A stretch of 64,000 bases of DNA from an uncultured archaeon (GCA_964608725.1 CAZSPB010000003.1:55645-119644); one strand, 5' to 3'; positions 1,704 through 55,733 are shown, counted from the stretch's first letter. Made by a program: numbers and translations. Notes: generated by a model not told the origin, from the sequence alone.

Positions 1704-2786
1704 CTAGATTTCAATTTTCCACCTTAAAATAGCAGCTATACCTCCAAGTTGATATAACTGTTTCCCTTCTCTTGTATCTTTAGAAATTATTTCAATTTTA
1801 GTTCCAAATTGTTTTGCTTTTTCCTTAAATTCTTTTGTCTCCAAACCTTCAGAAATGAGAATTATATCAACTGCACCTAATTCTAAAGCTTTCATAACTT
1901 TATCTTTACCATAAGTTACCATACCACTTTCCTTTTTTAATTCTTCAAAAAATTTTTGTAACAAAGCTTTTTCTTTTGCTATAGCAGCTTCAGCTAAAAT
2001 GTCTTGTGACTTTTCAACTAGTTCTTCTAGGCCATGTTCATCTGTGTAACCAGTATTTTTTATACCAAGAACTTGTTTTTTAATATCAGTTAAAAGATAA
2101 TCCCCAGAAAAGAAATTTTCTTTTGCAGGCCCTGGCCCTCCAATTATTATACCTTTCAAATTAAATTTTGAGAAATTATTTCTTACTCTTTCAGCTATTT
2201 TTTTATACCAGTCGTTTATTAACCCTTCCCTAACTCTTTGAAAACGCTGAGCACTTTGACCCCCTTTTATAGTTTTTGACGGGACTATTGATTCTAGTCT
2301 TTCTAATAACTCAATTTTTTTACCTTTTAGCAAACCAATAGAAGCTTCCCTATTATCCATAACTAAAAGACCAAATAACTCTTTTTCTGCAACCATGTCT
2401 TCTAAAGGCCCTAGCTCAAACTTCTTATCACACCAATACTTTTTTATCCTTAACTTTTCTGGAGGTTCTATTGCCCATGCTCTTATATCTGACTCGCCTT
2501 CTTTCTCTGAAATGTTACCTGAAAATATAACAAGTCCATTTTCAGGAGTTTTGCTGTAATGCTTAAGGTATTGTAAAATCTTTTCCAAAGCACCTAAAAC
2601 GTTGTTTCTTACTGTCTTATTCTTAACATTTTCAGTAAGTGTTTGTTCTTGTCTTATCATGTTTATTGCTTCTTGAATGTTGAAGCCTGAAGGTATGTAA
2701 AAGCTAACAAGCTCAGTATGTCTACCTTTAATTTTGCTTAATTCTTCAATTAGTTTCTTTACTTTGTACACCTTTTCCTCAACCAT
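1704..2786 (-). CDS. prf1: Peptide chain release factor aRF1
   Basis: GGQ motif ('KGGQSAQRFQR') and three-domain eRF1-like layout. The NIKS position reads 'NVKN'. Confidence 0.6.
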   Translation of the reverse strand: MVEEKVYKVKKLIEELSKIKGRHTELVSFYIPSGFNIQEAINMIRQEQTLTENVKNKTVRNNVLGALEKILQYLKHYSKTPENGLVIFSGNISEKEGESDIRAWAIEPPEKLRIKKYWCDKKFELGPLEDMVAEKELFGLLVMDNREASIGLLKGKKIELLERLESIVPSKTIKGGQSAQRFQRVREGLINDWYKKIAERVRNNFSKFNLKGIIIGGPGPAKENFFSGDYLLTDIKKQVLGIKNTGYTDEHGLEELVEKSQDILAEAAIAKEKALLQKFFEELKKESGMVTYGKDKVMKALELGAVDIILISEGLETKEFKEKAKQFGTKIEIISKDTREGKQLYQLGGIAAILRWKIEI

Positions 2787-2848
2787 ACTAACACCTAAAA
2801 GAAATAGCTACTCCCTGATTTCAATCTTACCTTTCATAGTTTCCCTAA

Positions 2849-5848: not shown

Positions 5849-6557
5849 ACTTTTTCAGTCCAGGTTTTGGTAAATTTTCAGTATCTATTTCAACTAATTT
5901 TCTATTTATAGTGAAACAAACGTTAAAGACTGGAATAGAATCAACAAAAGCTAAAGGTATTCCATAGTGTGCATGTCCATGAACAGCAAAAGTTGGCTTT
6001 GTCTTAATAAGAACTTTCTCAAGTTTTTTACTCCCTAAGCCACCATAAACTCTAGGATCTTCACCTTTTAATGTTTTATAAGTTGGTGAATAATGAGTAA
6101 GTAGAATTTTTATATCAGTTTTCAAATTTTTTAGTAAAATTTCTATTTTCTTTATCCTTTCTTTGTAAATGTCTTTAATCCCTGGTATGTGAGATGATTG
6201 CCACCAAGTAGGGACATCTAAAGAACCTCTAGAACCAACTATTCCAACTTTTTTATTTTTTATTTTTAAAACTATACTTTCATCATTCAAAAACTTTATT
6301 CTCTTTTTGCAAACTTTCTTTATCTCATCTATATCTTCATCAAACTCTCTGTTTCCAAAAACAGCAACTATTGGACACTTCCACTTCCTTAATTTTATAA
6401 AATCTAATATTAGGCCATACAATTCAGGAGAACGAAATTCGTACATATCTCCAGCAAAAAGCAAAAGATCTGGTTCTTTTGATTCTCTAATCATTTTATA
6501 AAAAGGTTCTAAATCTACACCAAGAGGATCAAGATCTGAAATAGCTTTGACAATCAT
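5841..6557 (-). CDS. Calcineurin-like metallophosphoesterase
   Basis: 'GDMYEF', 'GNREFD' and 'HGHAHYG' metallophosphoesterase motifs. At 238 aa it is too short to be Mre11. Confidence 0.55.
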   Translation of the reverse strand: MIVKAISDLDPLGVDLEPFYKMIRESKEPDLLLFAGDMYEFRSPELYGLILDFIKLRKWKCPIVAVFGNREFDEDIDEIKKVCKKRIKFLNDESIVLKIKNKKVGIVGSRGSLDVPTWWQSSHIPGIKDIYKERIKKIEILLKNLKTDIKILLTHYSPTYKTLKGEDPRVYGGLGSKKLEKVLIKTKPTFAVHGHAHYGIPLAFVDSIPVFNVCFTINRKLVEIDTENLPKPGLKKYV

Positions 6558-6594
6558 AAATATTCTTTTAACTTAATAAATTTAAAATTATGAT

Positions 6595-6666
6595 GGGCCG
6601 GTAGATCAATGGAAGATCGCTACCTTCGCAAGGTAGAGGTTGTGGGTTCGAATCCCACCCGGTCCA
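6595..6666 (+). tRNA. tRNA-Ala (anticodon CGC)
   Basis: Cloverleaf drawn by hand: acceptor GGGCCGG/CCGGUCC with a G3:U70 pair, anticodon loop UUCGCAA, T-loop UUCGAAU, discriminator A. No encoded CCA. Confidence 0.85.
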
Positions 6667-31578: not shown

Positions 31579-32226
31579 ATGAGGCTTACTAAAAAAGCTT
31601 GGAATAAAACATTTAAACAGCATGGCAAATTCTTTATAAAACCACAAGAAGATATACCAAAACTAGCTAGAGAATGGAAAAAAAAGAAAGTAAAAAGAAT
31701 TTTAGATTTGGGTTGTGGTTCTGGAAGGCATGTAGTTTATTTCGCAAAAAAGGGTTTTGAAGTTTATGGAATAGATATTGCCGAAGAAGGGATAAAAATT
31801 GCTAAGAAGTGGTTAAAGGAAAAGGAGTTAAAAGCTAAATTAAGAGTTGGCGATATTTACAAAAAACTTCCTTACAAAAGCAATTTTTTCGATGCAATAA
31901 TTTGTATAAGGACTTTGAATCATGGAAAAATTGAATGGATAAGAAAAACTATAAAGGAAATTTGGAGAGTTTTGCGACCATCTGGTTATCTTTTTGTAAC
32001 TGTTCATAAACATATGGGCAAGAAACATATACCAAAAGATAAACTTTATGGAATAAAATGGATTGCCCCAAGAACTTACATAATTTTAGGGGGGCCTGAC
32101 AAAGGAATTCCTCATTATCGTTTTAATAAACAGATTTTGATAAAAGAGTTTAAACCTTTCTTTAAAATAAAAAATATTTGGATTGATTCTGAACACTATT
32201 ATTGTTTATTGGGCATCAAAAAATGA
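31579..32226 (+). CDS. Class I SAM-dependent methyltransferase
   Basis: Motif I 'ILDLGCGSGRH' and 'VYGIDIAEE'. Confidence 0.6.
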   Translation: MRLTKKAWNKTFKQHGKFFIKPQEDIPKLAREWKKKKVKRILDLGCGSGRHVVYFAKKGFEVYGIDIAEEGIKIAKKWLKEKELKAKLRVGDIYKKLPYKSNFFDAIICIRTLNHGKIEWIRKTIKEIWRVLRPSGYLFVTVHKHMGKKHIPKDKLYGIKWIAPRTYIILGGPDKGIPHYRFNKQILIKEFKPFFKIKNIWIDSEHYYCLLGIKK

Positions 32227-42935: not shown

Positions 42936-43688
42936 ATGAATTTTGATTTCAAAGTTCAGAAAGGCCTTGATAAGAAAACAGTTGAATTAGCTAAAAAATT
43001 AAAATCTGATTTCACTAGAACTTTCCCTGTTTTTGTGATGCACTTACCCTATGGCTTTACTTCAGAAACACTCTCAAAGAGAGTAAAGTACAGGATATAT
43101 AAGTTTAATTCAGATAGTAATAACTCTGAAACTTATAACTTTAAAAATGGTTTTGGTTACGTTTCCTTGAACTCTAAAATACTGAGAAGGGATTATCACA
43201 AAGCTTTTCAATACTTTTCGCATGGTGTTGCCCATTCTTTCACTTGCTTTAACAAATTCGGTCTTGAATTCAAAACTCTTATGGAAGAAATGAATGCTGA
43301 GCTAGTTGGCTATAGGGCATTAGAATTTTTATTAGAAAATAATGATGAAAAAGATGTTATTATCGAAAGAGTAAAGAAAGCTTCTCCTTCAAAATATACT
43401 GAAGCTTATGAAATTGGTGAAAGGTTAGAAGAAAAGAAGCCAGGCTTTTTGAGAAAGTTAAATTCTTTGTTATATCAGTTAGAGAGAAATTCTCCAACAA
43501 GTATTTTAAAAAGAATTCCATTCTTGAAATTTCTTGATAAAGAAGAAAAAATAATTGAAAAGGTTGAAAAGGAGTTTTTAGAAGCTTGTAAGGAATTAGG
43601 AATTAAAAAAGAAAAGCTAGAAGATCTTGAAAGAAGATTTGGAAATGAGAAGATGTATTTGAGGGAAGAAATTTTTATCCCAATATAA
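42936..43688 (+). CDS. Hypothetical protein, apparent divergent paralog of the upstream HExxH protein with the motif degenerated
   Basis: 'HKAFQYFSHGVAHSF' aligns with 'HEFSHKFEIDYGYY...KAFMKF' of the neighbouring gene. Confidence 0.25.
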   Translation: MNFDFKVQKGLDKKTVELAKKLKSDFTRTFPVFVMHLPYGFTSETLSKRVKYRIYKFNSDSNNSETYNFKNGFGYVSLNSKILRRDYHKAFQYFSHGVAHSFTCFNKFGLEFKTLMEEMNAELVGYRALEFLLENNDEKDVIIERVKKASPSKYTEAYEIGERLEEKKPGFLRKLNSLLYQLERNSPTSILKRIPFLKFLDKEEKIIEKVEKEFLEACKELGIKKEKLEDLERRFGNEKMYLREEIFIPI

Positions 43689-43795
43689 TTTCAGGTTTTT
43701 TTCTTAGATAAAAAATAGTTTATCGGAATAGTTAATTTTAAATAGTTTAACTTATAATTAAAATATAAGAAATGAATATGTGATGAAGTGATGAT

Positions 43796-44110
43796 ATGGT
43801 GAAAAGAATAACAATAAATGTAAATGATTTATTATATGAAAAGATTCAAAAAATAAGAGCAGATATAATAAGAAGTTTAAGAAAAAATGTTAGCTTTGCG
43901 GCTGTATTTAATGCTGTTGCTTTTGGTGGATTATTGGCAGCTGATAAATTTACTGAAGCTGACTGGAAGTTAATATATTCATTTATTAAAGAATTCGTGA
44001 GATCAGAAAAAGCTAAAAGGCTACCAGAAAAAAAATTCGCGAAAAACATAATTGAGGTAGAAAAACGAATACAAATGATGATAAAAGTTAAACAAATAGT
44101 GAGAGAATGA
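43796..44110 (+). CDS. Hypothetical protein
   Basis: 104-aa ORF. Confidence 0.25.
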   Translation: MVKRITINVNDLLYEKIQKIRADIIRSLRKNVSFAAVFNAVAFGGLLAADKFTEADWKLIYSFIKEFVRSEKAKRLPEKKFAKNIIEVEKRIQMMIKVKQIVRE

Positions 44111-44538
44111 TATTACTCACTATTATCTTGGGTTTAATTATAATCTTTTTAATATTTGTTATACATCATTACAGAAAACAGATAGAAAAAGCGGAAGAAG
44201 AGATAATTAAACTTAGAGAAACTAAATTTTCAAAAGCATTTAGTCTTGGTAGTAACCAAATAAAGGGCTTCTTTGCTCAAATTCTTGGAACCTTCGCAAT
44301 GCTAAATGAGTATGATGAAATAATAATTCTTTCTACCACTTCAAAACAACCTTCACTTGATTTACTAGGAATAAAAAATGACTCACTTGATTTTATCGAA
44401 TTGAAGAAAAGTGGTGCAATGTTGACTTCTAATGAAAGAAAAATTAAAAAACTTGTAGAACAAAAGAAAGTTAAATACAAAATAATAGATGTTGAATTGC
44501 CAGAAAATACGACAATTAAAGAGAGGATTAAAAAGTGA
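44107..44538 (+). CDS. Membrane-anchored small protein with a PD-(D/E)xK-like nuclease motif
   Basis: N-terminal TM helix; the 'SLDLLGIKNDSLDFIELKK' D..(E)LK pattern resembles Mrr/Hjc/VRR-NUC catalytic cores. Confidence 0.3.
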   Translation: MILLTIILGLIIIFLIFVIHHYRKQIEKAEEEIIKLRETKFSKAFSLGSNQIKGFFAQILGTFAMLNEYDEIIILSTTSKQPSLDLLGIKNDSLDFIELKKSGAMLTSNERKIKKLVEQKKVKYKIIDVELPENTTIKERIKK

Positions 44539-44542
44539 TCCC

Positions 44543-45889
44543 ATGGTATCCCTAACCTTCTATGGAGGAGTTAACGAAATAGGAGGAAATAAGATACTAC
44601 TTGAAGATAAAGGTGCGAGAATATGGTTTGATTTTGGCCTATCTTTTAAGAAAGGCCAGAAATTCTATACAGGATTTTTAACAGCAAGAAGAGCAGCTGG
44701 TTGTGCTGATGATCTTGAGTTAGGAATAATACCAAGGATAGAAGGTTTGTATTCAGAAGAAATGTTGAAATTCACTGATTTGAAGTATAAAGAGCCTGAG
44801 TTCGATGGAATAGTTATATCTCATGCTCACATGGACCATTGCGCGCATTTGCAGTACATAGATGAAAAAATACCAATTTACCTTGGAGAAACAACTCATG
44901 CAATAATTAAAACAATAGAAGAAACTAGCTCTGGAGTAAAATTTGGTGAGCATAAGTATAGAAAATTCAGAACAGGTAATAAAATTACTATAGGAAGTGT
45001 TGAGATTGAGCCTATTCATGTTGACCACAGCATTCCAGGTGCTTACGGTTTTCTTATTCACACAACAGAAGGAACAATAGTTTACACAGGAGATATAAGG
45101 TTTCATGGCCCTGCTGCAATAATGAGTATTGAGTTCATTAAAAAAGCTAAGGAATCAAGGCCAATTGCCTTAATAATTGAAGGTACAAGGTTAGGGAGAG
45201 AAGAGAAAACAGAAAAAATGACTGAGGCTGATGTTCAAAGGCTTGTTTGCAAAATATTAAAAAGAACAAGAAAGTTCGTTGCAACAACATTTTATGGAAG
45301 GGATTACGATAGGATAATGAGTTTTTACCATGCTTCATTGAAATGTGAGAGAAAATTTACTGTTTCAATGAGGACTGCTCATTTATTGAATAAGCTAAAG
45401 CATGATAAAAGGTTGAATTGTCCTGATCCATTGAAAGATCCGAACATACTGATATACATTAGGAGGAAGAAGAGTTACTATAAGTGGGAAAGGCCTTACA
45501 TTAACTCTTCTAATGCTGTTAACTATGAATGGATAAGGAAGAATTTTTCAAATGTTCTATTGAATCTTGATCTTTACAATTTTGCTGAGCTTGTTGATAT
45601 AAAGCCTGATGGTGGAGATTTTATTCATTCGATGTCAGAACCTTTTGTTGAAGGTGGGTTGGATCAGATTGAGCAAGAAGTTATGTTGAATTGGCTTGAG
45701 CATTTTAATTTGAAATTTCATCAGGCCCATGCATCTGGCCATTGTTCTGTTAAGGATTTGGGAAAGGTTGTTAGATTCATCAGCCCTAAGGTTGTGATTC
45801 CTGTTCACACGGAGAATGCTAGATTATTTAGAAAGTTTGGAGTAAAAGTGAAACAGTTAAAGAGCGAAAAAGTTAAAATTATGGTTTAG
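44543..45889 (+). CDS. rnj: Archaeal RNase J-like beta-CASP metallo-beta-lactamase ribonuclease
   Basis: 'GGVNEIGGN' RNase J N-terminal signature, the 'HAHMDHCAH' MBL motif and downstream beta-CASP His/Asp residues. The ATG at 44543 is preferred over the longest ORF. Confidence 0.65.
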   Translation: MVSLTFYGGVNEIGGNKILLEDKGARIWFDFGLSFKKGQKFYTGFLTARRAAGCADDLELGIIPRIEGLYSEEMLKFTDLKYKEPEFDGIVISHAHMDHCAHLQYIDEKIPIYLGETTHAIIKTIEETSSGVKFGEHKYRKFRTGNKITIGSVEIEPIHVDHSIPGAYGFLIHTTEGTIVYTGDIRFHGPAAIMSIEFIKKAKESRPIALIIEGTRLGREEKTEKMTEADVQRLVCKILKRTRKFVATTFYGRDYDRIMSFYHASLKCERKFTVSMRTAHLLNKLKHDKRLNCPDPLKDPNILIYIRRKKSYYKWERPYINSSNAVNYEWIRKNFSNVLLNLDLYNFAELVDIKPDGGDFIHSMSEPFVEGGLDQIEQEVMLNWLEHFNLKFHQAHASGHCSVKDLGKVVRFISPKVVIPVHTENARLFRKFGVKVKQLKSEKVKIMV

Positions 45890-45915: not shown

Positions 45916-46635
45916 TTACATTTTTTTCGATAATTCTTCTAAAGCTGTAATAATATAATTTATTTCCATTCGAATTTGCTCCATGTAAATGTTAGCCAAA
46001 AAATTATGTGCGGCAGCATCACCTAGAAATTTACTTCTTTTCAAATGAATTGCCGTCTTTGGCGAAATATAAGGGGTGCCATCTTTTCCTTTTTCTCTTG
46101 AGGCTATATTAATCATTTTTTCTAACCCAACAATTTTTTTATGATTTGATGGGTCATTTAACTTTTCAATCATACCTTGTTTTGCAAATGCAAAGTAAAT
46201 GGACTTTTCTATTATTCTTCTTAAAAGAAATGCTGTACAATTGCCACTTTTATTCCAGACTAAATTCAAATCGTTAAAATCTATCTTAAATTTTTCTCCA
46301 AGCTTTCTGAGTAGTTTCTTTGGAAAAAAAGCAAAAAAGGTATTTGGAGTATTTCGTTCTTTAAACTTAACCCAAGAACCATACCATATTCTTTTACCAT
46401 CAACAAATTCGGTTTTTACTATTCCATTTTTTATAAAAGGTTTCATATAGGTAATAACTATACTACTTTTTATTCTTTTTAGCGTGGCGTTCCTTAACTT
46501 TTTAGCAATTTCGCAAGAGTACATTGGTGTATGAAGTATCTCATTTTTAAGAATAAGATTCTTAATTTCATTATATAGAGAGTCTTTTTTAAATTTCATC
46601 TTCATTAATTTTTTTCTAGCTTCTGCGAATTGCAT
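45916..46635 (-). CDS. Hypothetical protein (accessory; possible HEPN/Abi-like C-terminal region)
   Basis: 239 aa; 'RSKFLGDAAAHN' loosely resembles an R-x(n)-H HEPN-type motif. Last gene of a 3-gene minus-strand operon. Confidence 0.25.
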   Translation of the reverse strand: MQFAEARKKLMKMKFKKDSLYNEIKNLILKNEILHTPMYSCEIAKKLRNATLKRIKSSIVITYMKPFIKNGIVKTEFVDGKRIWYGSWVKFKERNTPNTFFAFFPKKLLRKLGEKFKIDFNDLNLVWNKSGNCTAFLLRRIIEKSIYFAFAKQGMIEKLNDPSNHKKIVGLEKMINIASREKGKDGTPYISPKTAIHLKRSKFLGDAAAHNFLANIYMEQIRMEINYIITALEELSKKM

Positions 46636-47042
46636 TATTTCACTTTTTTAAAATTATTTTCAACATATTTTTCTCCAGAATTAGTGAGTTGAAATGCCTT
46701 AAACCCCTCTTTTTCGCCAACTTCCATTATATAGCCTTTTCTTATATTCAAATTTATTTTATCATTAATATTAAGGGGAATTTTTTCCCTTGCCTCTATG
46801 AAGATTTTTTTAAGATCATTCTTATTAAAAGGTGTTAATCCCTTATATTTTTCTAGATAATAACCCATTGCTAAGGTTTTGTCGGTATCACTGTTAGGAT
46901 TTTTTTCATTTAAAAATTCTCTTATTGATAGAGGTTTAATCACAGGGGTAGATTTTCTGAATAAACCTTCTAATTCTGATAATCTCTTTTCATGATTTTT
47001 TAAAATAATTTTAATTCTTTCTATCTCATCCATAAAAACCAC
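46635..47042 (-). CDS. Hypothetical protein (middle gene of 3-gene operon)
   Basis: 135 aa; start/stop overlaps with its neighbours. Confidence 0.3.
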   Translation of the reverse strand: MVFMDEIERIKIILKNHEKRLSELEGLFRKSTPVIKPLSIREFLNEKNPNSDTDKTLAMGYYLEKYKGLTPFNKNDLKKIFIEAREKIPLNINDKINLNIRKGYIMEVGEKEGFKAFQLTNSGEKYVENNFKKVK

Positions 47043-47045
47043 CGT

Positions 47046-47321
47046 CTAATTTAATTTTTTTACCCTTTTATATCTCCATTTTTCTTGTCCTATCCTCTGT
47101 TCTTTAGATAGTTTTTCACGTTCTAACCCTATGGAAGAATCTCTACACATCAATGTTAACTGCCTATTAACCGCACCAATTTGTCTACCTTTGAGAGTGA
47201 ACCCACGAGCTGATAATTTTTTAATGACTTCGATTGAGGTTTTAGGTGTATCAAAAAAACCATCATCCACCAATTCTTTCAAAATTTTCTTTATCTTCAT
47301 ATTATATTTAATACAGCTCAA
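47046..47321 (-). CDS. Small winged-helix transcription regulator
   Basis: 'SIEVIKKLSARGFTLKGRQIGAVNRQL' wHTH-like. Confidence 0.35.
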   Translation of the reverse strand: MSCIKYNMKIKKILKELVDDGFFDTPKTSIEVIKKLSARGFTLKGRQIGAVNRQLTLMCRDSSIGLEREKLSKEQRIGQEKWRYKRVKKLN

Positions 47322-47362
47322 GGGTATTTAAACTTTTCTATTCCTTGTTTTATTATGTGAAT

Positions 47363-47449
47363 TATGAAAAAATCAATATAAATCAAGAGAAAATCGGGAC
47401 AGTCAATTAAATTTGCATATTTTTAATGAGTTACTTATTAATGAAAAAG
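47363..47449 (+). repeat. Direct repeat copy 1 (87 bp; frameshifted duplicate of the 5' end of the gene at 47642)
   Basis: Matches 47641-47725 except for one extra A in the 'ATGAAAAAATC' run. Confidence 0.8.
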
Positions 47450-47640
47450 CGAAGAAATTTTGTTTGTTAAGAATTTTTTGATAAAAAATATGAATTTTTA
47501 ACGTGAAAAAAGTTTAAGTATATTCTACATCTGAAAAAAACATAATGTTCATAATTTCCTTTTTAATTTGTATCGAAAAACTTATTAAGAATATTTAAAG
47601 ATACAGTAAAATTTAAATATTTATTATTTATTATAAATAT

Positions 47641-47725
47641 TATGAAAAATCAATATAAATCAAGAGAAAATCGGGACAGTCAATTAAATTTGCATATTTT
47701 TAATGAGTTACTTATTAATGAAAAG
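47641..47725 (+). repeat. Direct repeat copy 2 (85 bp; includes the start codon and first ~28 codons of the regulator gene)
   Basis: Identical to 47363-47449 apart from a 1-nt indel. Confidence 0.8.
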
Positions 47726-48085
47726 GAATTGTTAATTCAACTTGTCGAAAGGTTGAAAAATAAAGTTAAGTTCTTAGAAGGATCTTCATATCCCATTTTT
47801 CTAATTGACATGAATAGACTAGTAAATGAGGAAAAAATTGCTTTATGGTTAATTACAAAATTTATCTTAAAAAAAATTGGTGCTGTTGAAAATGAAGATA
47901 TGTCTATTGATGAATTAGAGGAGAAATGTAGATTAAGTAGAAAAATTATTATAGCAAGGCTAAAAGACTTAAGAGATAAAAAAATAATTGAAAGGACTAA
48001 AGGAATTAACTTTAGGATAAATTTACCTGCTGCAATTTTCATTTTAGATAAAATAGATAAGAGACTTGAAAAGGAAATTAACTAG
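47642..48085 (+). CDS. HTH DNA-binding protein (putative regulator at the head of the R-M/defence block)
   Basis: 'MSIDELEEKCRLSRKIIIARLKDLRDKKIIER' HTH-like segment. Confidence 0.4.
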   Translation: MKNQYKSRENRDSQLNLHIFNELLINEKELLIQLVERLKNKVKFLEGSSYPIFLIDMNRLVNEEKIALWLITKFILKKIGAVENEDMSIDELEEKCRLSRKIIIARLKDLRDKKIIERTKGINFRINLPAAIFILDKIDKRLEKEIN

Positions 48086-48183
48086 AGGTTTTTTAATCTT
48101 ACTTCCAATTTTTCCTAAAGATTATTATTAAGATTATAAATAAATATTTCTTTTACAAAGAGATTATTAAAAGTGAAATAAAT

Positions 48184-48993
48184 ATGGAAGAAAAAGTAAA
48201 TGATTTAGATCCGAAAAAATGGAGAGAATATGAAAAGGAAGGATTACAATTTTTTACAGTATGGGATACACCCGAAAGAGATCCTTATAATTGGACAAAT
48301 TACACAATTCATGGAAATTCACCAGTAGAAATAGTAAGACAATGTATTCTTAGATTTTCAAGGAAAAATGACTTAGTTTTAGACCCATTCGTTGGCTCAG
48401 GAACAACTTTAATTGTATGCGCAAGAGTAAAAAGAAGAGGTATAGGAATAGAAATAAACCCTAATATAGTAAAGATAATTAAAAAAAATTTTGCACAAAA
48501 GGGATTAGAAAAAGAATATAATGAGTGGTTAACAAAGCAAAAAATTATTTGTGATGATGCAAGAAATCTTAAGAATTATGTGAAGGATAATTCTGTAGAT
48601 ATGGTATTTACACATCCGCCTTACTGGGATTTGATTAATTATAGTAAAGAATATGGGATGGTTAAAGGGGATTTATCGAATATGAGTTTTGAAGAATTTT
48701 TGAATGGCATAGAAGAAGTTTTTCAACATATTTACGATGTACTTAAAAAAAATAAATTCTTTTGTGTTTTAATTGGGGATGATTTCAAAGAAGGAGGAAA
48801 AGTTATCCCTCTTGATTACTATTTAACAAAAATCGGATTAAATGTCGGTTTTGAATTTTATACAAAAATAATCAAAATAACTAGAGAGGCAACTTCAAGA
48901 AGAAACCAGATTAATATTATGAAGTATAGATCTTTAAGAAACAACTTTTTTATATGCATTCATGATTTTGTTCTTATATTTAAAAAGGTATGA
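48184..48993 (+). CDS. DNA amino-methyltransferase (N6-adenine or N4-cytosine), gamma-class motif order
   Basis: Motif I 'LDPFVGSGTT' precedes motif IV 'THPPYWD'. Confidence 0.7.
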   Translation: MEEKVNDLDPKKWREYEKEGLQFFTVWDTPERDPYNWTNYTIHGNSPVEIVRQCILRFSRKNDLVLDPFVGSGTTLIVCARVKRRGIGIEINPNIVKIIKKNFAQKGLEKEYNEWLTKQKIICDDARNLKNYVKDNSVDMVFTHPPYWDLINYSKEYGMVKGDLSNMSFEEFLNGIEEVFQHIYDVLKKNKFFCVLIGDDFKEGGKVIPLDYYLTKIGLNVGFEFYTKIIKITREATSRRNQINIMKYRSLRNNFFICIHDFVLIFKKV

Positions 48994-49949
48994 AAATGAA
49001 ACATGAAGAAGTTGTAGAAGTAGTGGCAGAATGGTTCAAATCCAACCCAAAAGTAATTTTGGTAGGTAAATGTTCCGGAGACTTTCCTGAACCTGATATA
49101 TATGCACAATTTAAAGATAATAGTATAGGGTTTGTAGAATGTAAACCAAGTGATGTTGGAGGTAGAGAATATTTAACTGGCTTTGGGCAAGCAATAGCTT
49201 ATGCCACACTTTCTAACTACTCTTTTCTAGCGATACCAGAAAAAGAGATGAAAAAGTATAAAAAATATTTTTGGGTTGAATTAATAGGTTTATTAGCAGT
49301 AAGAGAAAATGGCATTGTTAAAGTAATAAGAAAGGCTAAAAAGATAGAACTAAAATCAGTCCATGAAAGAAGGACCCGGGCTTATGGATATTATAGAGAC
49401 CTTCATCCTTATGAAATTCATCAGATCCTAGAATCAATCACTCATAGTAAAAATGAATCTTCAAGAAAGAAAGAAATATGGAAAACCATTTGTAAATTGA
49501 GAAACATAAAAAGTATGAAACAGAGGAATGCATGGATACTTAATGTAAAACTCCTTTTAAGAGATCTTGGTTTGGTTAATTATGATCTATCTCTCACAGA
49601 AAAAGGATTTTATTTACTACAAGTTGGTAGATCAAGAAATAAGAAATTATATCTCTCTGAGTTAACACGATGTTTTCTTATAAACGCCAATTATCTCGAA
49701 TTGTTAGCATTAATTCAAAGGTTAAATGACATATATACAGCATTTAGTACTGTAAAAAAATTTAAAATGTTATTAGCAAAAGAAATATTAAAAGAGAAGT
49801 TAGCCACAACACAGACAAATATAATGAGAGATTTACAAGATATACCTAGAATATTGAAAGAACTCGGTCTCATAAATGACTGGCAAAAGCATGGATTTGG
49901 ATACAGATATACTATTAATTGGGATAAAATAACCAAATTGCTAAAATAA
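48990..49949 (+). CDS. Candidate Type II restriction endonuclease (PD-ExK)
   Basis: Start overlaps the MTase stop (ATGA). N-terminal 'EPDIY...GFVECK' PD-(D/E)xK motif. Confidence 0.45.
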   Translation: MKMKHEEVVEVVAEWFKSNPKVILVGKCSGDFPEPDIYAQFKDNSIGFVECKPSDVGGREYLTGFGQAIAYATLSNYSFLAIPEKEMKKYKKYFWVELIGLLAVRENGIVKVIRKAKKIELKSVHERRTRAYGYYRDLHPYEIHQILESITHSKNESSRKKEIWKTICKLRNIKSMKQRNAWILNVKLLLRDLGLVNYDLSLTEKGFYLLQVGRSRNKKLYLSELTRCFLINANYLELLALIQRLNDIYTAFSTVKKFKMLLAKEILKEKLATTQTNIMRDLQDIPRILKELGLINDWQKHGFGYRYTINWDKITKLLK

Positions 49950-49969
49950 TCACATATAGACGAAATTCT

Positions 49970-50254
49970 TTATTTAATCTTAAAGGGTAAGCCTGCTTCT
50001 TTTATTCTTCTTAATATCTCTTCCCTAGATGGCTTTTTATCTCTCAAAGCTTTCTCTAATTCCTTTCTTGTTTTTCCACAATTAGAACACTTCTCGGATA
50101 AAATCTTGTATTTTTCCCTAGTTCTGTAAATTTTTCTTTTCGTTCCTGCTGCAGAAGAATGTGTAGTTGCAAATTGTAAAACTGAAGGTTTATACAAAAC
50201 CTTTATTGTTTCTTTCTTGCAAAAAGGACATTCTATTGTTAAAATTTCAGGCAT
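49970..50254 (-). CDS. Small Zn-ribbon protein
   Basis: 'CPFCKK...CSNCGK' CxxC...CxxC. Confidence 0.4.
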   Translation of the reverse strand: MPEILTIECPFCKKETIKVLYKPSVLQFATTHSSAAGTKRKIYRTREKYKILSEKCSNCGKTRKELEKALRDKKPSREEILRRIKEAGLPFKIK

Positions 50255-50301
50255 AGTATCTATCTATATGTTTATAGAAACTTATAATTTAATGTGATCT
50301 T

Positions 50302-50790
50302 ATGGATTTTGAAGATCTAACAAAATTAATTTTCAGCGAAATGAAATCTGTGTTAGAAAGCAACCAAGGTTTATATATCTTCGCAAAAGAAAGAGCTAAA
50401 TTTGAAGGTTGGCTAAAAGTAGAAATATGTAAAATTTTATCAAAACAGTTCGAAGATGTTATTCCTGAAAAAGATAGGATTGATATTATATTTCAAAATT
50501 GGGTAATCGAATTAAAAACAATCAATACTAACTATAGGTACAAAAATGTTAAGAGAAAAAACCGGCCGATAACCAGAAATATACAGAGACTACTTGATGA
50601 TATTAAAAAATTGAAATCTATTAATTATACTAATAAAGCCGTTTTATTTATCGTTTTCCCAACAAACCACAATAATCAAAAATGGCAAAAACACTTAAGG
50701 AAAGTTTCTAAATTACTAAGAAAAATAGAATATAGTGATTTTAAGTTCAGAGATCGAATTCCTGGAGTTATTTATTTTGGTTTGGTATAA
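50302..50790 (+). CDS. Small PD-(D/E)xK nuclease-fold protein (Mrr/Hjc-like core)
   Basis: Helix 'WLKVEICKILSKQF' followed by 'DRIDIIF...WVIELKT' (D...E-L-K). Confidence 0.4.
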   Translation: MDFEDLTKLIFSEMKSVLESNQGLYIFAKERAKFEGWLKVEICKILSKQFEDVIPEKDRIDIIFQNWVIELKTINTNYRYKNVKRKNRPITRNIQRLLDDIKKLKSINYTNKAVLFIVFPTNHNNQKWQKHLRKVSKLLRKIEYSDFKFRDRIPGVIYFGLV

Positions 50791-50832
50791 ACTGCCAAAT
50801 CAGATATTATTAATTTATTAAAGCCTATTGTT

Positions 50833-51480
50833 TTGTGTGAAGAATATAAAATAAAATCTCCTATAAATATAGATATGATAACATTCGAAGAACAAATTGT
50901 AAAATCTTATTATAATTTAAAGAATTACTTCACAATAGAGAACATTCCTTTTTCTGCTAGAAAGAAAAGCAAAGGTGGGAAGGGAAGAGGAGAAATAGAT
51001 TTGATTGCAGTCAAATTAGATAAAAATAGTGGAATAATAAAAGACATAATTCATATTGAAATAACAGCTTCAATAGTTGAAAAATTTCCATTCGTATCCA
51101 AATATAAAGGTAGTGACGAGATTTATAAACTTCTTAAAAAATTTTTCATAAACAATTCAGATGAGAAACTTAAAGAATTTTACTTAGGTAAATGGAGATA
51201 TCAATTTGTAACCAGTAGGTTTAGAAAAAATATAGAGATTCTTTTAAGAAAAAGGTTAAAATACTGGGGCGCAAAAATTACATATCTAAAAGAAATCAAT
51301 GGAGAACTCTTTACTAGAATAGAATATGATTCGAAGTGTAAGGAAATAGAGATAACTCCATTCACCAAAATTTTGGGAGAGTTCAAAGAAAAAATGAAAG
51401 ATAAAACTGAACATTACTTATCTACGAGTATAAGAGCAATGCAATGGTGGAAAATTATTGAAAGTACCAAAGCCATTTAA
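50833..51480 (+). CDS. Mrr-cat/Hjc-like restriction-endonuclease-fold protein with an E-x-T variant of the E-x-K motif
   Basis: 'SKGGKGRGEIDLIAV...IIHIEITAS' parallels the Mrr/Hjc pattern 'G..DL(I/V)A...IE(V)K', but with T in place of K. Confidence 0.4.
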   Translation: MCEEYKIKSPINIDMITFEEQIVKSYYNLKNYFTIENIPFSARKKSKGGKGRGEIDLIAVKLDKNSGIIKDIIHIEITASIVEKFPFVSKYKGSDEIYKLLKKFFINNSDEKLKEFYLGKWRYQFVTSRFRKNIEILLRKRLKYWGAKITYLKEINGELFTRIEYDSKCKEIEITPFTKILGEFKEKMKDKTEHYLSTSIRAMQWWKIIESTKAI

Positions 51481-51546
51481 TAAAAAATCTAAACCGAAAA
51501 ACTAGAGATTTAGAAAATAACTAGATCCCTAAAGGTTTCAAATTTC

Positions 51547-53025
51547 TCACATAAACGCTCTCACATCTCTCCTTCTCTGCTCTCTTTCTTCAACAGCCTC
51601 CTTCCACTCTTTCAAAACATCAGGATCCTTTCCCATCAACTTTCCCAAAAACTTGTCTATTTTAACTAAAGCTGGAATTTTAACCATCGGCCCTAGAACA
51701 ATTGCTTCACCAACGTTCAAAGATGGCAAATGTTCCATCAACTCATTGCTTAAAGCTTCACTAGCAGCCTGAACATGTCTTTGATCTCCAGGTTCAACCA
51801 ATTTTAAAATTATCATGTTATTAACTTGTGATAACGCATCAGCATCCAAAGCTTTTGGCCTTTGACTAACTAAGCACAAACCTACTCCAAATTTTCTTCC
51901 CTCTCTTGCTATCCTGCTTATGTAATATTTTGATAAAGTACTCCTGTTAGCAGGAGCCAAAATATGAGCTTCCTCAAGAACAATAAAAATAGGTGTTTTC
52001 AATCCTTCTCCTTTTCTCCTATAATTCTTCCTCTCTTCAAGTATCTTTCTTAAGCAATGACTAACAATAACATCTGCCCCATCCTCATCTATCAAACCAA
52101 GATCAATTATGTTAACCTTTCCATAGCTTATTCTATCTATTATATCTGAAACTTTCATATCAAATATCGAGGCCCTATACTCAAGCATGTCATCAAGCTT
52201 ATTCTTAACAGCAACTATCCTATTCTTATCAGACTTATAACTCTCATTTTCCAAAAGATTATCAAGCTCTTTTTGCATTGCATCAAAGAACCCTTCTAAG
52301 CTCATTAAACCTCCTCTTTTCCTGAACTCTTTCTCTGCTTTTTGATAAGCCATTCTAAAATATCTATATTGGATATAAGCATCACTCCATATGTTTGCAA
52401 GGCCAGCTGCTTCACTTATTGACAAATTCAATGGACTTATCTTTGTTTCTATTATATTTTTCTCTCCATTTGGAAAGTTTGCATCCACATACTCAGAATG
52501 CATATCAAATATTAAAACAGTTCCATTGTATTTCAAAAGGCCATTGACTATGACAGCAACAGCATTGCTCTTTCCTGCTCCAGTTAAAGCAAGAATGGAA
52601 AGATGCCTGTTAACTATCTTATTTGCGTCAATAAAAACAGGAACATCTTCCTGAGTTATCAAATTCCCTAACTTAACACCACTTTCTCCAAATATTTTTT
52701 TCAAAATTTCAGGATCAGCTTTCTTAACCTCTGTTCCTGGTGTTGGAGGTGTTCTAGGTATTTTTAGATTCTCAATATCACCAAGAATTTTGATAAAACC
52801 TTTTATGTAATACTCATCACCTTCTATTTCCTTTATCTTTTCAACAACTTTAGGGTCAAAGATATCATCTGTTATGCTAGGGCTTCCCCTAACTAAAGCT
52901 TCAATCATTCCAAGAACCTTTTTTCCATCATACTCAAGGATAACATATTCTCCAACTTTTGGCATTTTCTTTGAAACAAATTCAACTCTAGTTGGCAAAG
53001 CTTCTCCTATACACCTTCCAATCAT
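51547..53025 (-). CDS. herA: HerA-family (DUF87/FtsK-HerA) ATPase
   Basis: N-terminal HAS-barrel-like segment, Walker A 'LTGAGKSN', Walker B 'IFIVLEEAH'. Confidence 0.7.
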   Translation of the reverse strand: MIGRCIGEALPTRVEFVSKKMPKVGEYVILEYDGKKVLGMIEALVRGSPSITDDIFDPKVVEKIKEIEGDEYYIKGFIKILGDIENLKIPRTPPTPGTEVKKADPEILKKIFGESGVKLGNLITQEDVPVFIDANKIVNRHLSILALTGAGKSNAVAVIVNGLLKYNGTVLIFDMHSEYVDANFPNGEKNIIETKISPLNLSISEAAGLANIWSDAYIQYRYFRMAYQKAEKEFRKRGGLMSLEGFFDAMQKELDNLLENESYKSDKNRIVAVKNKLDDMLEYRASIFDMKVSDIIDRISYGKVNIIDLGLIDEDGADVIVSHCLRKILEERKNYRRKGEGLKTPIFIVLEEAHILAPANRSTLSKYYISRIAREGRKFGVGLCLVSQRPKALDADALSQVNNMIILKLVEPGDQRHVQAASEALSNELMEHLPSLNVGEAIVLGPMVKIPALVKIDKFLGKLMGKDPDVLKEWKEAVEEREQRRRDVRAFM

Positions 53026-54050
53026 AATACCTCCCTTCCTGTTCTCTCAAAAAAACCAAAGGCCTTCACGATCTTTTCCATTTCCTTATTGCTTATTAAA
53101 ACATCATTGTGTGCTTTCTTCAACAAGTAAGGATAACCTTCAACACATATCCTTTTTATTTTTTCTAATAGCTTTTCAACATTACTAATTCTTTTAGGTA
53201 TTTCAAACTTTAAAACATTTCTTCTATCTTCTAGCCTGGCATAAAAAATTGTGAATTGAATGTTCCTGAAGAAATCATCTAATATAGGGAAGCTTCTCTT
53301 TAATCTAGCATCTATGCTACCGTAAATAGGAGATGAATAACCTTGTTTATGAGTTGATTTCTCGAATATTGCTATGTCAGGAATGTTTTCCTTGAAATAA
53401 TCTGTTGCTTGTGAGGTCTTTGCTATAGCCACTATTTTATCATTGTTCTTCAACAACTCTTTCATGCATAACAAATGCTCTAAATACTCTAAATAGCTCT
53501 GGGCCTCTGCTTTTTCTTCAAATCTTTCTTCTATTTCCTTGAAGAATTTTCTCGAAGATATTTCTATTCCATTTGAAATTTCTAGCTTAGGTAAGAATTC
53601 TTTTTTTATTTCATTTTTAACCTCAGATTTTGGATTCAACCTGAATGGTAATGGCCTTATTATGTCTCCTATTATTGAACCATCTAGCAAAGCAATATCA
53701 GCATGCTTTAAAGCTTTTAAAAGAGCTTTTGTTTCGAATATGTGCATGTAAAACCTTAACCTTTCTTTAGTGAATTTATAGGGGTATAAAATATCAATAT
53801 CGCAAGCTTTAATTGATTTCAATTTTTCATCAAATACTAATGCTTCTGAAGTCACAGCATAGATAGTGAAACCTCTAAACTCTTTGAAGTTGTAACTTCC
53901 ATCACAAGCTGCTATAGGAACCTTTTCACCTTCTTTTATCTCCTTTTCTATCCATAGCTTTTTTGCATCAAAACTTTTTAAATCAAAATTTACTTTATCA
54001 AGAATTTCCTTCTTTTTTTGAGTGAGTTTTTCAGCTATGAAGTTGAACAT
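53022..54050 (-). CDS. nurA: NurA-like nuclease
   Basis: N-terminal 'IAACDGSYNF' NurA motif I (catalytic Asp). A 342-aa size is typical of NurA, and the stop overlaps the herA start. Confidence 0.55.
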   Translation of the reverse strand: MFNFIAEKLTQKKKEILDKVNFDLKSFDAKKLWIEKEIKEGEKVPIAACDGSYNFKEFRGFTIYAVTSEALVFDEKLKSIKACDIDILYPYKFTKERLRFYMHIFETKALLKALKHADIALLDGSIIGDIIRPLPFRLNPKSEVKNEIKKEFLPKLEISNGIEISSRKFFKEIEERFEEKAEAQSYLEYLEHLLCMKELLKNNDKIVAIAKTSQATDYFKENIPDIAIFEKSTHKQGYSSPIYGSIDARLKRSFPILDDFFRNIQFTIFYARLEDRRNVLKFEIPKRISNVEKLLEKIKRICVEGYPYLLKKAHNDVLISNKEMEKIVKAFGFFERTGREVL

Positions 54051-54214: not shown

Positions 54215-54394
54215 ATGAGAACTCTTGAGATAAGCTTTGAAGAGGATTTTTTCGCCTGGAAATTCCTAGAATCACAGTTTTTACAAGAAGAAGAAAAGTG
54301 TGCTACTTGCATTCATTACAAAAATGGTAAATGTGAACTTCCTTTTTGTAAATACGAGAGAAAAGAAATTCCTCTTTACTATTTAGCTAGATAG
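54215..54394 (+). CDS. Small Cys-containing protein (59 aa), first of three tandem micro-ORFs
   Basis: 'CATCIHYKNGKCELPFCKY'; a GGGTGA Shine-Dalgarno-like sequence lies upstream. Confidence 0.3.
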   Translation: MRTLEISFEEDFFAWKFLESQFLQEEEKCATCIHYKNGKCELPFCKYERKEIPLYYLAR

Positions 54395-54405
54395 GAGGTG
54401 AAAGA

Positions 54406-54603
54406 ATGAGTGCTTCATGGCACAACTACCATTTAATGCCTGGAACGCCTGAGTGGAGAGCTTTACACAGGCCTGGAACACTAGATGAATTTTTAGATAT
54501 CCACAGACCAATTAGGCCATTAATAGAAGAACCAAAGTATGACCCAAGAACAGATTTGGAAAAGTTATTGGAGAAATACAAGATAGAAAAGGAGTACAGG
54601 TGA
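54406..54603 (+). CDS. Small His/Pro-rich protein (65 aa)
   Basis: A strong 'AGGAGGTG' Shine-Dalgarno sequence 5 nt upstream. Confidence 0.35.
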   Translation: MSASWHNYHLMPGTPEWRALHRPGTLDEFLDIHRPIRPLIEEPKYDPRTDLEKLLEKYKIEKEYR

Positions 54604-54607
54604 AAAA

Positions 54608-54772
54608 ATGTCAGAAAGAGTAATAGAATGGGTAACTAAAACAGATTTTGGAAAGTTTCCAAAAGGAACTGAGCATGTGAAAATAGAAAACCCTTATGGA
54701 GTTGGATACAAAGGAACAATACATGCATATAAGCTCCCTGATGGAAGGGAAGGAAGACATATAGATTATTAG
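54608..54772 (+). CDS. Small protein (54 aa)
   Basis: ATG 5 nt after the previous stop, suggesting translational coupling. Confidence 0.3.
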   Translation: MSERVIEWVTKTDFGKFPKGTEHVKIENPYGVGYKGTIHAYKLPDGREGRHIDY

Positions 54773-54926
54773 GTGTTAAAAATATCTAAGCTGTGCGACA
54801 GACAATTCGAAGCATTGCATCACTTGCTTCACGATCCCGGTGTTAGGTATTGTGAAGAGAGGCAAAGAAGGTATCTAGAAACTTACAGAAGTAAGAGTTA
54901 AATCTTTTTTCCTTAATATTTAAGTC

Positions 54927-55733
54927 ATGAAAATTCTTAGACCAAATCCTTTAAAATTTTTGAAATTTTTGAAAAATGAATTTCTTTCAGTCCATTATGA
55001 TGTACTTGGAAAAAATAGCGCTAATCGAGATGCTTACATTCTTAAATCATTAGAACATAGAATCGAAGCTTTGAAAAATCAAAATTTCCTTTTAAAAGAA
55101 GTTGTTACTTCTGAAGAAAAGAAAAAGGCTTACGATGCTATTTTAAAAAGGCACGATAAAAGAATAATCTTTCTAGAAAATTGCGAAATTTTAACCCCAA
55201 CTCCTCATTTCACAAATTGTTACTCAATAATAGACTTGAGGAATGAAAAAGAGTATCATATGGATAAAATACTTGAATATGGAAATATTCTTTCTGAAGA
55301 ATTGAAAGGAAATGAAAAACAAAAACTTGAAAATTGGTTAGAAGCAGTAGAAATTATTAGGAAAAATAGTGAAGAATATGATAGAAAATGTCTTGATTGC
55401 TTTTCAGAAATTTCAAAATATGCTTCAAAAGAGTTGAGACTAAGAACTTTATCACAATTGCTTAAAAGGCACAGCGAAAGGTTTGAAATGCTAGTTAAAT
55501 TTGCTTGGCCATGCGATCCTTTTAAATCAACAAATTTTTCTTCTTGCTTGTTTGGTGTTGATGTTAAAGATGAACTTAAATATCACGCTGGTATGGAAAT
55601 TCATTATGCTTCTCTAATAGATAAAATTGAAGGTAAAGAAAACTCCAAAAAGATGGAAAAATATTATAAACTTTTTATAGAAAAACCTTATGAGTTATGC
55701 AAGGATTGTTTTTCTCAAAAATTTAGCATATAG
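54927..55733 (+). CDS. Hypothetical Cys-containing protein
   Basis: 268 aa with 'CLDCF', 'WPCDPF' and 'CKDCF' motifs. Confidence 0.3.
   Translation: MKILRPNPLKFLKFLKNEFLSVHYDVLGKNSANRDAYILKSLEHRIEALKNQNFLLKEVVTSEEKKKAYDAILKRHDKRIIFLENCEILTPTPHFTNCYSIIDLRNEKEYHMDKILEYGNILSEELKGNEKQKLENWLEAVEIIRKNSEEYDRKCLDCFSEISKYASKELRLRTLSQLLKRHSERFEMLVKFAWPCDPFKSTNFSSCLFGVDVKDELKYHAGMEIHYASLIDKIEGKENSKKMEKYYKLFIEKPYELCKDCFSQKFSI

Follow-up and report, generated by a model that had tools for sequence, protein, structure and literature searches.

Archaeal defense systems are much less charted than bacterial ones. DNA-end resection by HerA-NurA is known from work on Sulfolobus, Pyrococcus, and Thermococcus (PMC3326311, PMC4351679, PMC12977600), and DUF4145, a member of the HEPN superfamily, has been reported as fused to or in operons with restriction-modification (R-M) components (Anantharaman et al. 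2013, PMC3710099; PMC3632139). Here, we analyzed a locus with a HerA-NurA pair and a DUF4145-like protein in a 64,000-nucleotide (nt) stretch of DNA from an uncultured archaeon (GCA_964608725.1, CAZSPB010000003.1:55645-119644), hereafter called the window. An initial annotation made from the sequence alone had described positions 45916 to 54050 as a defense-island-like block, possibly harboring a new system. Unrelated modules with a defense flavor (an R-M pair, orphan nucleases, and a DUF4145/HEPN-like cassette) do make up an accessory patch, but the block does not form one new system with HerA-NurA. Rather, the region is likely a composite of an ordinary HerA-NurA repair pair and a patch of approximately 5.6 kb (45916-51480) that abuts the 3′ end of herA and consists of separately inherited modules, mostly of defense type.

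The repair pair is encoded by two genes:

51547 to 53025, minus strand: HerA, hexameric DNA translocase of double-strand-break end resection (HAS-barrel and DUF87 domains)
53022 to 54050, minus strand: NurA nuclease (PF09376, NCBIfam NurA_Sulf)

The identification of these genes as a NurA-HerA pair was borne out by matches of HerA to the HAS-barrel (PF09378, E=5.4e-16) and DUF87 (PF01935, E=8.2e-47) domains and of NurA to its own domain (PF09376, E=3.4e-36) and to NurA_Sulf (E=6.6e-45). As in the described archaeal complex, HerA combines a HAS-barrel with the HerA ATPase, NurA is made of a NurA domain, the genes overlap (by 4 nt, 53022-53025), and the best full-length profile matches of the pair are to repair-type models. 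Thus, HerA matches the NCBIfam repair model HerA_Thermprot over its full length with 497.6 bits, whereas its matches to NCBI's two anti-phage HerA models are partial, at 152.6 (HerA_antiphage_2) and 108.9 bits. The HerA_Thermprot and HerA_antiphage_2 scores are both under the equivalog cutoffs; for the repair pair, the scores and NCBI cutoffs are 497.6 versus 800 and 153.8 versus 400, a shortfall expected of a distant lineage.

We compared the pair with 13 related loci (L002 to L014; comparison loci are designated by L numbers throughout). HerA is 46-63% identical to the HerA proteins of loci having mre11-rad50. The nurA gene adjoins herA in 12 of the 13, mre11 and rad50 follow herA in 12 as well, and the contiguous order nurA-herA-mre11-rad50 is found in 11. 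Pfam confirmed this placement of mre11 and rad50 in two loci, and tblastn did so for the others. The window differs from this typical, though not universal, linkage: neither mre11 nor rad50 occurs anywhere in its 64 kb, and convergent accessory genes are found instead past the 3′ end of herA. HerA-based anti-phage systems have SIR2 or DUF4297 effectors; in contrast, the partner of the window HerA is NurA, and no protein of the block matches SIR2 or DUF4297. A scan of the block proteins with PADLOC-DB v2.0.0 returned matches to the MTase_II and HerA models only. Because of the repair-model matches and of the linkage to mre11-rad50 in related loci, the genes at 51547-54050 are the canonical archaeal DNA-end-resection pair for homologous recombination. 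We also considered the herA-mre11 junction as a general hotspot for defense genes and dropped the idea: the sole other interrupted locus, L005, carries approximately 8 kb of surface-protein genes between herA and mre11.

Three genes lie next to herA in the patch:

49970 to 50254, minus strand: 94-amino-acid (aa) zinc-ribbon protein with four cysteines (CPFC at residues 9-12, CSNC at 56-59)
50302 to 50790, plus strand: 162-aa orphan PD-(D/E)xK nuclease (D61...E70-L-K72) of a widespread archaeal family
50875 to 51480, plus strand: 201-aa orphan PD-(D/E)xK nuclease (GEID42...E62) with an AF1548/Mrr-like fold; open reading frame (ORF) listed from 50833

For the last of these, the most likely start, which agrees with that of all homologs, is the ATG at 50875 (201 aa). 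The initial annotation had called the two nuclease genes a tandem of Mrr/Hjc-like genes. Their nuclease fold stands, given the confident AlphaFold models of the 50302 and 50833 proteins (predicted local distance difference test scores of 88 and 90, predicted template modeling scores of 0.85 and 0.87), for which PD-(D/E)xK proteins are the top fold matches. The Mrr/Hjc-like label thus holds for the fold only: the two families are unrelated, and neither protein is an Hjc, a single-domain resolvase of approximately 120-140 aa. They are only 8-18% identical to AF1548 (PDB 1y88), Mrr-type, and other stand-alone restriction-endonuclease-fold proteins and have no Pfam match to Mrr_cat, Hjc, or NucS. 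Mrr-like Type IV restriction enzymes combine an Mrr_cat nuclease domain with a reader of modified DNA; the fold of the 201-aa protein resembles the cores of AF1548, FokI, and McrC, but its core Lys is not at the canonical E-x-K position, and its C-terminal half has no assigned reader domain.

The 162-aa family has at least 450 members. Among the matches listed (n=119, the window's own protein excluded), identities are 57-69% and nearly all proteins have 160-174 aa; the sources include Bathyarchaeia, Thermococcus aggregans, Methanoperedens, and Nitrososphaerales. The 201-aa family is rare and patchy, with 26 clusters. We inspected 86 loci of the former (6 by exact look-up and 80 by a metagenome scan) and seven of the latter, and none of the 86 or of the seven has the other nuclease family, HerA, or NurA; conversely, neither nuclease family is found in any of the 13 HerA-related loci. 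The tandem arrangement is a juxtaposition and not a conserved pair, because the two families never co-occur in the inspected loci. The zinc-ribbon gene, whose two CxxC pairs we confirmed, is a single-gene unit convergent with the upstream endonuclease gene described below. The protein has only sub-threshold family matches, and a homolog occurs near the 162-aa family in one locus only (L033, 47% identity, E=6e-21, 1.1 kb apart). Thus, the genes at 49970-51480, which had been singled out as the best candidates for a new combination, alone or with HerA-NurA, show no linkage to each other or to the pair.

These results bear on the hypothesis that the zinc ribbon, the two small nucleases, and HerA-NurA make up a new HerA-based anti-phage system, with HerA-NurA recruited from repair and the nucleases acting as effectors or sensors in place of Mre11-Rad50. 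The physical adjacency of the genes, the lack of mre11 and rad50 in the whole window, and the nuclease folds of both small proteins would fit such a system, and HerA does match the PADLOC and NCBIfam anti-phage HerA models (E=2.9e-60 and 1.7e-44). However, the anti-phage models are matched only in part, with scores roughly a third of that of the full-length repair-type match, the usual partners SIR2 and DUF4297 are absent from the block proteins, and the nuclease genes are convergent with herA and hence not co-transcribed with it. Together with the co-occurrence counts, this makes the hypothesis extremely improbable. The proposed involvement of HerA-NurA in a new system falls with it, as the pair is of the repair type and its orthologs adjoin Mre11/Rad50 genes in other archaea. 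For annotation, the housekeeping repair pair is therefore set apart from its accessory neighbors, which avoids calling a new HerA-based defense system on adjacency alone.

In our composite reading, the zinc-ribbon gene would be a lone module and the two nucleases would most likely be orphan or stand-alone restriction-type enzymes. Elsewhere, the 162-aa family is found alone among housekeeping genes (Thermococcus, Bathyarchaeia, and Nitrososphaerales), and clustering of the neighbors within 3 kb yielded no common partner. Pfam identified Eco57I/TaqI_C-type methyltransferases directly upstream of 162-aa family genes in two loci (L078 22-2994 and L080 2851-5481), and a similar large protein is encoded at the same place in a third (L107 972-3296). 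Because such methyltransferases adjoin it, the 162-aa protein is probably the restriction endonuclease partner in loci of this type. The 201-aa family occurs in three kinds of contexts, namely, gene-dense contigs without Pfam match, RadC/SocA/PLD-helicase neighbors, and bacterial-looking housekeeping genes. A label of “DpnII-like” given in UniRef to one member of the 162-aa family was not retained, as no Pfam match among 29 members reproduced it.

Some side observations were made at these loci. In seven of them (L059, L060, L083, L084, L086, L091, and L019), an unannotated gene for a protein of 224-260 aa that ends with KLIDEY(N/H)WW overlaps the start of the 162-aa nuclease gene by approximately 10 nt; the Nitrososphaerales copy of this gene is truncated, and the gene may be a partner of the family in particular lineages. 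Locus L024, a contig with a 201-aa family gene, encodes at 6005-6637 a methyltransferase 75% identical to that at 31579-32226 of the window, and thus may come from a relative of the window's organism, although the gene order differs. Locus L033 (1-11522) is AT-rich and defense-island-like, with a UvrD-like helicase, a DUF2130 protein, the 162-aa family nuclease, further PD-(D/E)xK-like ORFs, and a 562-aa double methyltransferase. After its zinc-ribbon homolog comes a protein of 215 aa carrying an ECK...GQ motif. We dropped a functional link between the zinc ribbon and endonuclease-type nucleases, since this neighbor resembles the 319-aa family described below only around ECK...GQ (hhalign probability of 9.7%).

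Upstream of these genes, the patch contains a predicted R-M pair:

48184 to 48993, plus strand: N6/N4 DNA methyltransferase (PF01555, PADLOC MTase_II)
48990 to 49949, plus strand: 319-aa protein, predicted to be a Type II restriction endonuclease; PD-(D/E)xK core in the N-terminal part (invariant motif, synteny)

The methyltransferase matches PF01555 in two permuted stretches (E=8.8e-31, 108 bits versus a cutoff of 26.7) and PADLOC MTase_II over its full length (E=2.5e-46). Its motif I (DPFVGSGTT) precedes motif IV (THPPYW), an order permuted relative to the Pfam model. The gene overlaps by 4 nt that of the 319-aa protein, which has no relative in Pfam, NCBIfam, PADLOC, or PDB. We collected 51 homologs of the latter, and alignment of 19 sequences of the family revealed the invariant residues F32-P33-x-P35-D36 ... 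E50-C51-K52-P53. A search of viral, phage, and plasmid sequences with this family returned one weak partial match only.

Homologs of the 319-aa protein are encoded directly after the same methyltransferase family in two loci (L028 and L029) and after a frameshifted copy in a third (L030), the neighbors of which are MmeI-like, PLD-helicase, and DrmE genes. In one of the two intact pairs, from a Bathyarchaeota metagenome-assembled genome, the endonuclease homolog follows a methyltransferase gene whose product is 64% identical to ours, about 1.4 kb from a tyrosine-recombinase gene. The window methyltransferase is 82-87% identical to methyltransferases from metagenomes, whereas the endonuclease homologs on contigs of matching length are only 55-68% identical, which suggests that the endonuclease is the faster-diverging member of the pair. 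The pair thus resembles Type II R-M systems with a PF01555 methyltransferase by its two overlapping, codirectional genes, the PD...(D/E)xK core of the partner, its maintenance as a unit in other genomes, and its association with an integrase or a defense island. In contrast with the usual Type II methyltransferases, motif IV contains HPPY instead of D/N/SPPY. The significant methyltransferase matches, the invariant PD...ECK motif, and the recurrent pairing substantiate the methyltransferase/PD-(D/E)xK pair of the initial annotation, and 48184-49949 is credibly predicted to be a mobile Type II R-M pair whose endonuclease family is new to databases. In such an operon, the methyltransferase would mark host DNA and the 319-aa enzyme would cut unmarked incoming DNA.

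The remainder of the patch is a cassette of four small genes:

45916 to 46635, minus strand: 239-aa protein with a variable helix-turn-helix (HTH)-like N-terminal region and a conserved C-terminal domain (sub-threshold DUF4145 match); last gene of the cassette
46635 to 47042, minus strand: 135-aa protein with homologs in L112 and L115
47046 to 47321, minus strand: 91-aa HTH-like protein with homologs in L112 and L115, first of the minus-strand unit
47642 to 48085, plus strand: 147-aa winged-helix-like protein (weak HTH matches)

The minus-strand genes had been described as a three-gene operon led by a winged-helix protein. They are indeed tightly spaced, with 3 nt between the 91-aa and 135-aa genes and a 1-nt overlap between the 135-aa and 239-aa genes; the winged-helix labels, for their part, come from weak matches. 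The 147-aa gene is divergent from this unit and lies directly upstream of the methyltransferase gene. Its product matches the NCBIfam Lrs14-family HTH model with E=1e-4, far under the cutoff, and has weak matches to HxlR/HTH_11 and to the winged helix of Csa3/CARF proteins.

The 239-aa protein belongs to a family of 89 representative clusters (among 1.84 billion proteins). Conservation is concentrated in a C-terminal domain of approximately 135 residues (residues ~100-239), with the motifs TAFLLRKILEK and (K/R)FLG(D/N)xAAH(N/D) and the invariant residues R139, E143, K144, G205, and H210. The window protein matches Pfam DUF4145 with E=0.019 (15.5 bits versus a cutoff of 23.1); two other members do so with E=0.0017, also under the cutoff, and one member has a sub-threshold match to T1RH-like_C. 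No consistent PADLOC match was found for family members. Like DUF4145-type HEPN proteins, the 239-aa protein has a helical C-terminal domain with a conserved basic residue...G(D/N)xxxH signature and weak DUF4145/T1RH-like_C matches, is fused to an HTH-like module, and is encoded near methyltransferases. It differs from them by matches under the Pfam threshold, by a Lys instead of Arg at a spacing other than Rx4-6H, and by being always accompanied by two or three small HTH-like partners, an arrangement that we did not find described.

The recurrence of this cassette is the least expected result of the analysis. We inspected it in the window and in two unrelated metagenomic lineages (L112-L114 and L115), where 239-aa homologs (48% and 47% identity) are found in the same gene order. 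The 135-aa gene, which has no Pfam, NCBIfam, PHROG, or PADLOC family, is immediately upstream of the 239-aa gene wherever seen, and its homologs (43% identity, L112 4576-5004; 56%, L115 1494-1898) both overlap the start of the 239-aa homolog. Homologs of the 91-aa protein are found at L112 6705-6974 (43% identity, E=6e-25) and, in the equivalent operon position, at L115 1259-1501 (33% identity, E=1.6e-4). The C-terminal half of the 147-aa protein aligns to L112 6154-6708 (E=2e-8) and L112 4143-4571, and the first gene of the L115 operon aligns weakly to that protein (E=0.034). In L112-L114 (50% GC), homologs of all four genes are thus present, arranged as two triads. In L115 (45% GC), a codirectional overlapping operon encodes proteins of 156, 80, 134, and 241 aa and is followed by an N6_N4 methyltransferase gene. 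With the window counted, the cassette adjoins an N6/N4 methyltransferase in two of three lineages. Beside the cassette homologs, L112 also encodes, at 448-1440 and 2681-3328, a 330-aa protein with a nuclease-like “DLLAID...VAIEIKKGE” motif (no Pfam match) and a DUF8426 protein.

From these features, we infer that the cassette may be a regulated HEPN-type toxin or abortive-infection module that tends to adjoin methyltransferases, made of three small HTH-like proteins and a DUF4145/HEPN-like protein; modules of this kind are often linked to R-M systems. It is the sole element of the region with some chance of being a new system; that 45916-48085 would represent an undescribed mobile archaeal defense or toxin cassette working alongside DNA methyltransferases, for instance in restriction-linked abortive infection, is a tentative proposal that we regard as rather doubtful.

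A related possibility is that the cassette and the adjacent R-M operon form one larger system, in which the HTH proteins would control the methyltransferase and endonuclease genes and the HEPN-like protein would be a back-up suicide effector. The 147-aa HTH-like gene is 98 nt upstream of the methyltransferase gene on the same strand, the N6_N4 methyltransferase gene of L115 lies within 165 nt after the cassette, and DUF4145-type HEPN domains have been reported in operons with, or fused to, R-M components (PMC3710099, PMC3632139). Yet, in the three independent lineages inspected, that of L112-L114 has no methyltransferase in the DNA examined, and the L115 enzyme shares only 29-36% identity with that of the window, differs from it in motif order, and lacks a neighboring endonuclease homolog. 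Conversely, the homologs of the window R-M pair in L028-L030 have no cassette. A single larger system therefore seems a possibility of low likelihood, and we prefer to regard the cassette and the R-M pair as separate modules of the patch.

The interpretation of 45.9-51.5 kb as an accessory, horizontally exchanged patch is partly supported, because its modules recur separately in distant lineages and in nonsyntenic contexts, one of them has the anatomy of an R-M system, and the usual site of mre11-rad50 lacks these genes. Several observations weigh against it or against the roles that we assign. In one-genome-per-species collections, the closest HerA is only 63% identical (Candidatus Baldrarchaeum), followed by those of other Asgard archaea, Methanobacteriales, and Thermofilaceae, and no sister genome is present there to show that the patch is variable or recently acquired. 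GC at third codon positions (GC3) of the patch genes is within 1.5 standard deviations of the window mean, and per-gene GC and GC3 give no island signal. No integrase or transposase domain and no tRNA gene is found at the patch edges, and there is no tRNA gene within 38 kb of the block. The matches behind the HEPN assignment fall under the Pfam cutoff (E=0.0017-0.019), and in 32 of 33 members the conserved basic residue, located eight residues ahead of the His, is a Lys, in contrast with the canonical Rx4-6H. The 162-aa family is often amid housekeeping genes and is unusually uniform for its spread (57-69% identity across phyla), so that a cellular function would fit it too. Finally, the activities of all these proteins are predictions from sequence or structure models.

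Some of these points would favor a different view, without a defense island, in which the patch consists of cellular genes conserved in the lineage (regulators, and nucleases for DNA repair or processing) and sparse sampling of that lineage makes them look accessory. The unremarkable codon-position GC, the lack of mobility genes or tRNA borders, the high conservation of the 162-aa family and its housekeeping neighbors on both sides in Thermococcus, Bathyarchaeia, and Nitrososphaerales, and the housekeeping-like character of one 201-aa family context all agree with it. Against it, the methyltransferase/endonuclease pair is built, and moves, like an R-M module, the cassette is found in organisms of 28%, 45%, and 50% GC in nonsyntenic contexts, the 201-aa family is rare (26 clusters) and patchy, and L033 and L030 contain members of these families among obvious defense genes. 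We thus consider this view unlikely and favor the composite of a repair pair and a patch of separately inherited modules.

Current views are not overturned by this composite, as the patch contains known kinds of parts from undescribed families. Four of these have no curated description: the endonuclease that travels with the PF01555 methyltransferase, the widespread 162-aa archaeal PD-(D/E)xK family, the rare AF1548-like nuclease, and the recurrent four-gene HTH/HEPN-like cassette. PDB sequence-profile searches with the four uncharacterized families returned nothing; viral, phage, and plasmid searches were empty for both nuclease families and the 239-aa family, and Foldseek found nothing significant among viral models. 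Expression tests of the cassette and of the endonuclease would be reasonable and inexpensive.

The start of the 147-aa gene is duplicated:

47364 to 47447, plus strand: repeat copy 1, noncoding repetition of ~28 codons from the start of the 147-aa gene (80 nt identical to copy 2)
47642 to 47724, plus strand: repeat copy 2, first 83 nt of the 147-aa gene (80 nt identical to copy 1)

The duplication, initially given as 86 bp, is real. It is a direct repeat of 80 nt with 100% identity (47368-47447 versus 47645-47724) that extends to approximately 88 nt when the ATG and one indel in an A-run are included. The ATG of copy 1, which sits 43 nt upstream of the divergent 91-aa gene, is out of frame through an A5/A6 difference (ATG+A6 = MKKSI*), and the window has no third copy. 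An independent assembly of run SRR7051320 contains the same sequence as the window; its contig stops at window position 47695, 30 nt short of where copy 2 ends on the right, precisely at the branch point that a k=31 graph has at an exact repeat. The assembly break at the repeat indicates that the duplication, or two variants sharing it, is present in the reads. As to its origin, tandem duplication was ruled out by the unrelated flanks, and the 197-nt insert between the copies is too small for an integrated element. If the cassette is a defense or toxin module, the duplicated gene start could serve in its regulation or be a scar left by recombination.

All ORFs listed in the initial annotation, like the repeat, were found where it had placed them, and profile matches confirmed its housekeeping flanks. 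These are, upstream, an RNase J-family beta-CASP protein (TIGR00649, E=4.7e-32, below cutoff) and, downstream, an archaeal S-adenosylmethionine (AdoMet) synthetase (PF01941, E=3e-174) and Cbf5 (NF003280, E=1.6e-121). The window has approximately 31% GC and archaeal genes, including those for AdoMet synthetase, Cbf5, SecY, and ribosomal proteins. An Rfam scan of 43-58 kb found nothing relevant, and a scan for bacterial-type promoters and terminators was of no use on such AT-rich archaeal DNA, where 42 promoter-like sites were expected and 54 found.

Unannotated small genes are also present outside the block borders, at 42936-44538 and 54215-55733. In the first of these regions, the ORF at 44107-44538 encodes a 143-aa protein with an N-terminal membrane helix and a weak match (E=1.6e-4) to PF10107 (“endonuclease related to Holliday junction resolvase”). 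This ORF runs into the start of the RNase J ORF as listed (44489-45889), which more probably begins at Met19 (about 44543). The second, between nurA and the AdoMet synthetase gene, contains three tiny ORFs of 59 (Cys-rich), 65, and 54 aa and a larger one of 268 aa in which a CxDCFS motif occurs twice; none of them has a Pfam or NCBIfam family. Farther away in the window, a 504-aa protein with YadA-head repeats (121-1635) and a 616-aa beta-propeller protein (PF09826; 8375-10225) are probably surface proteins.

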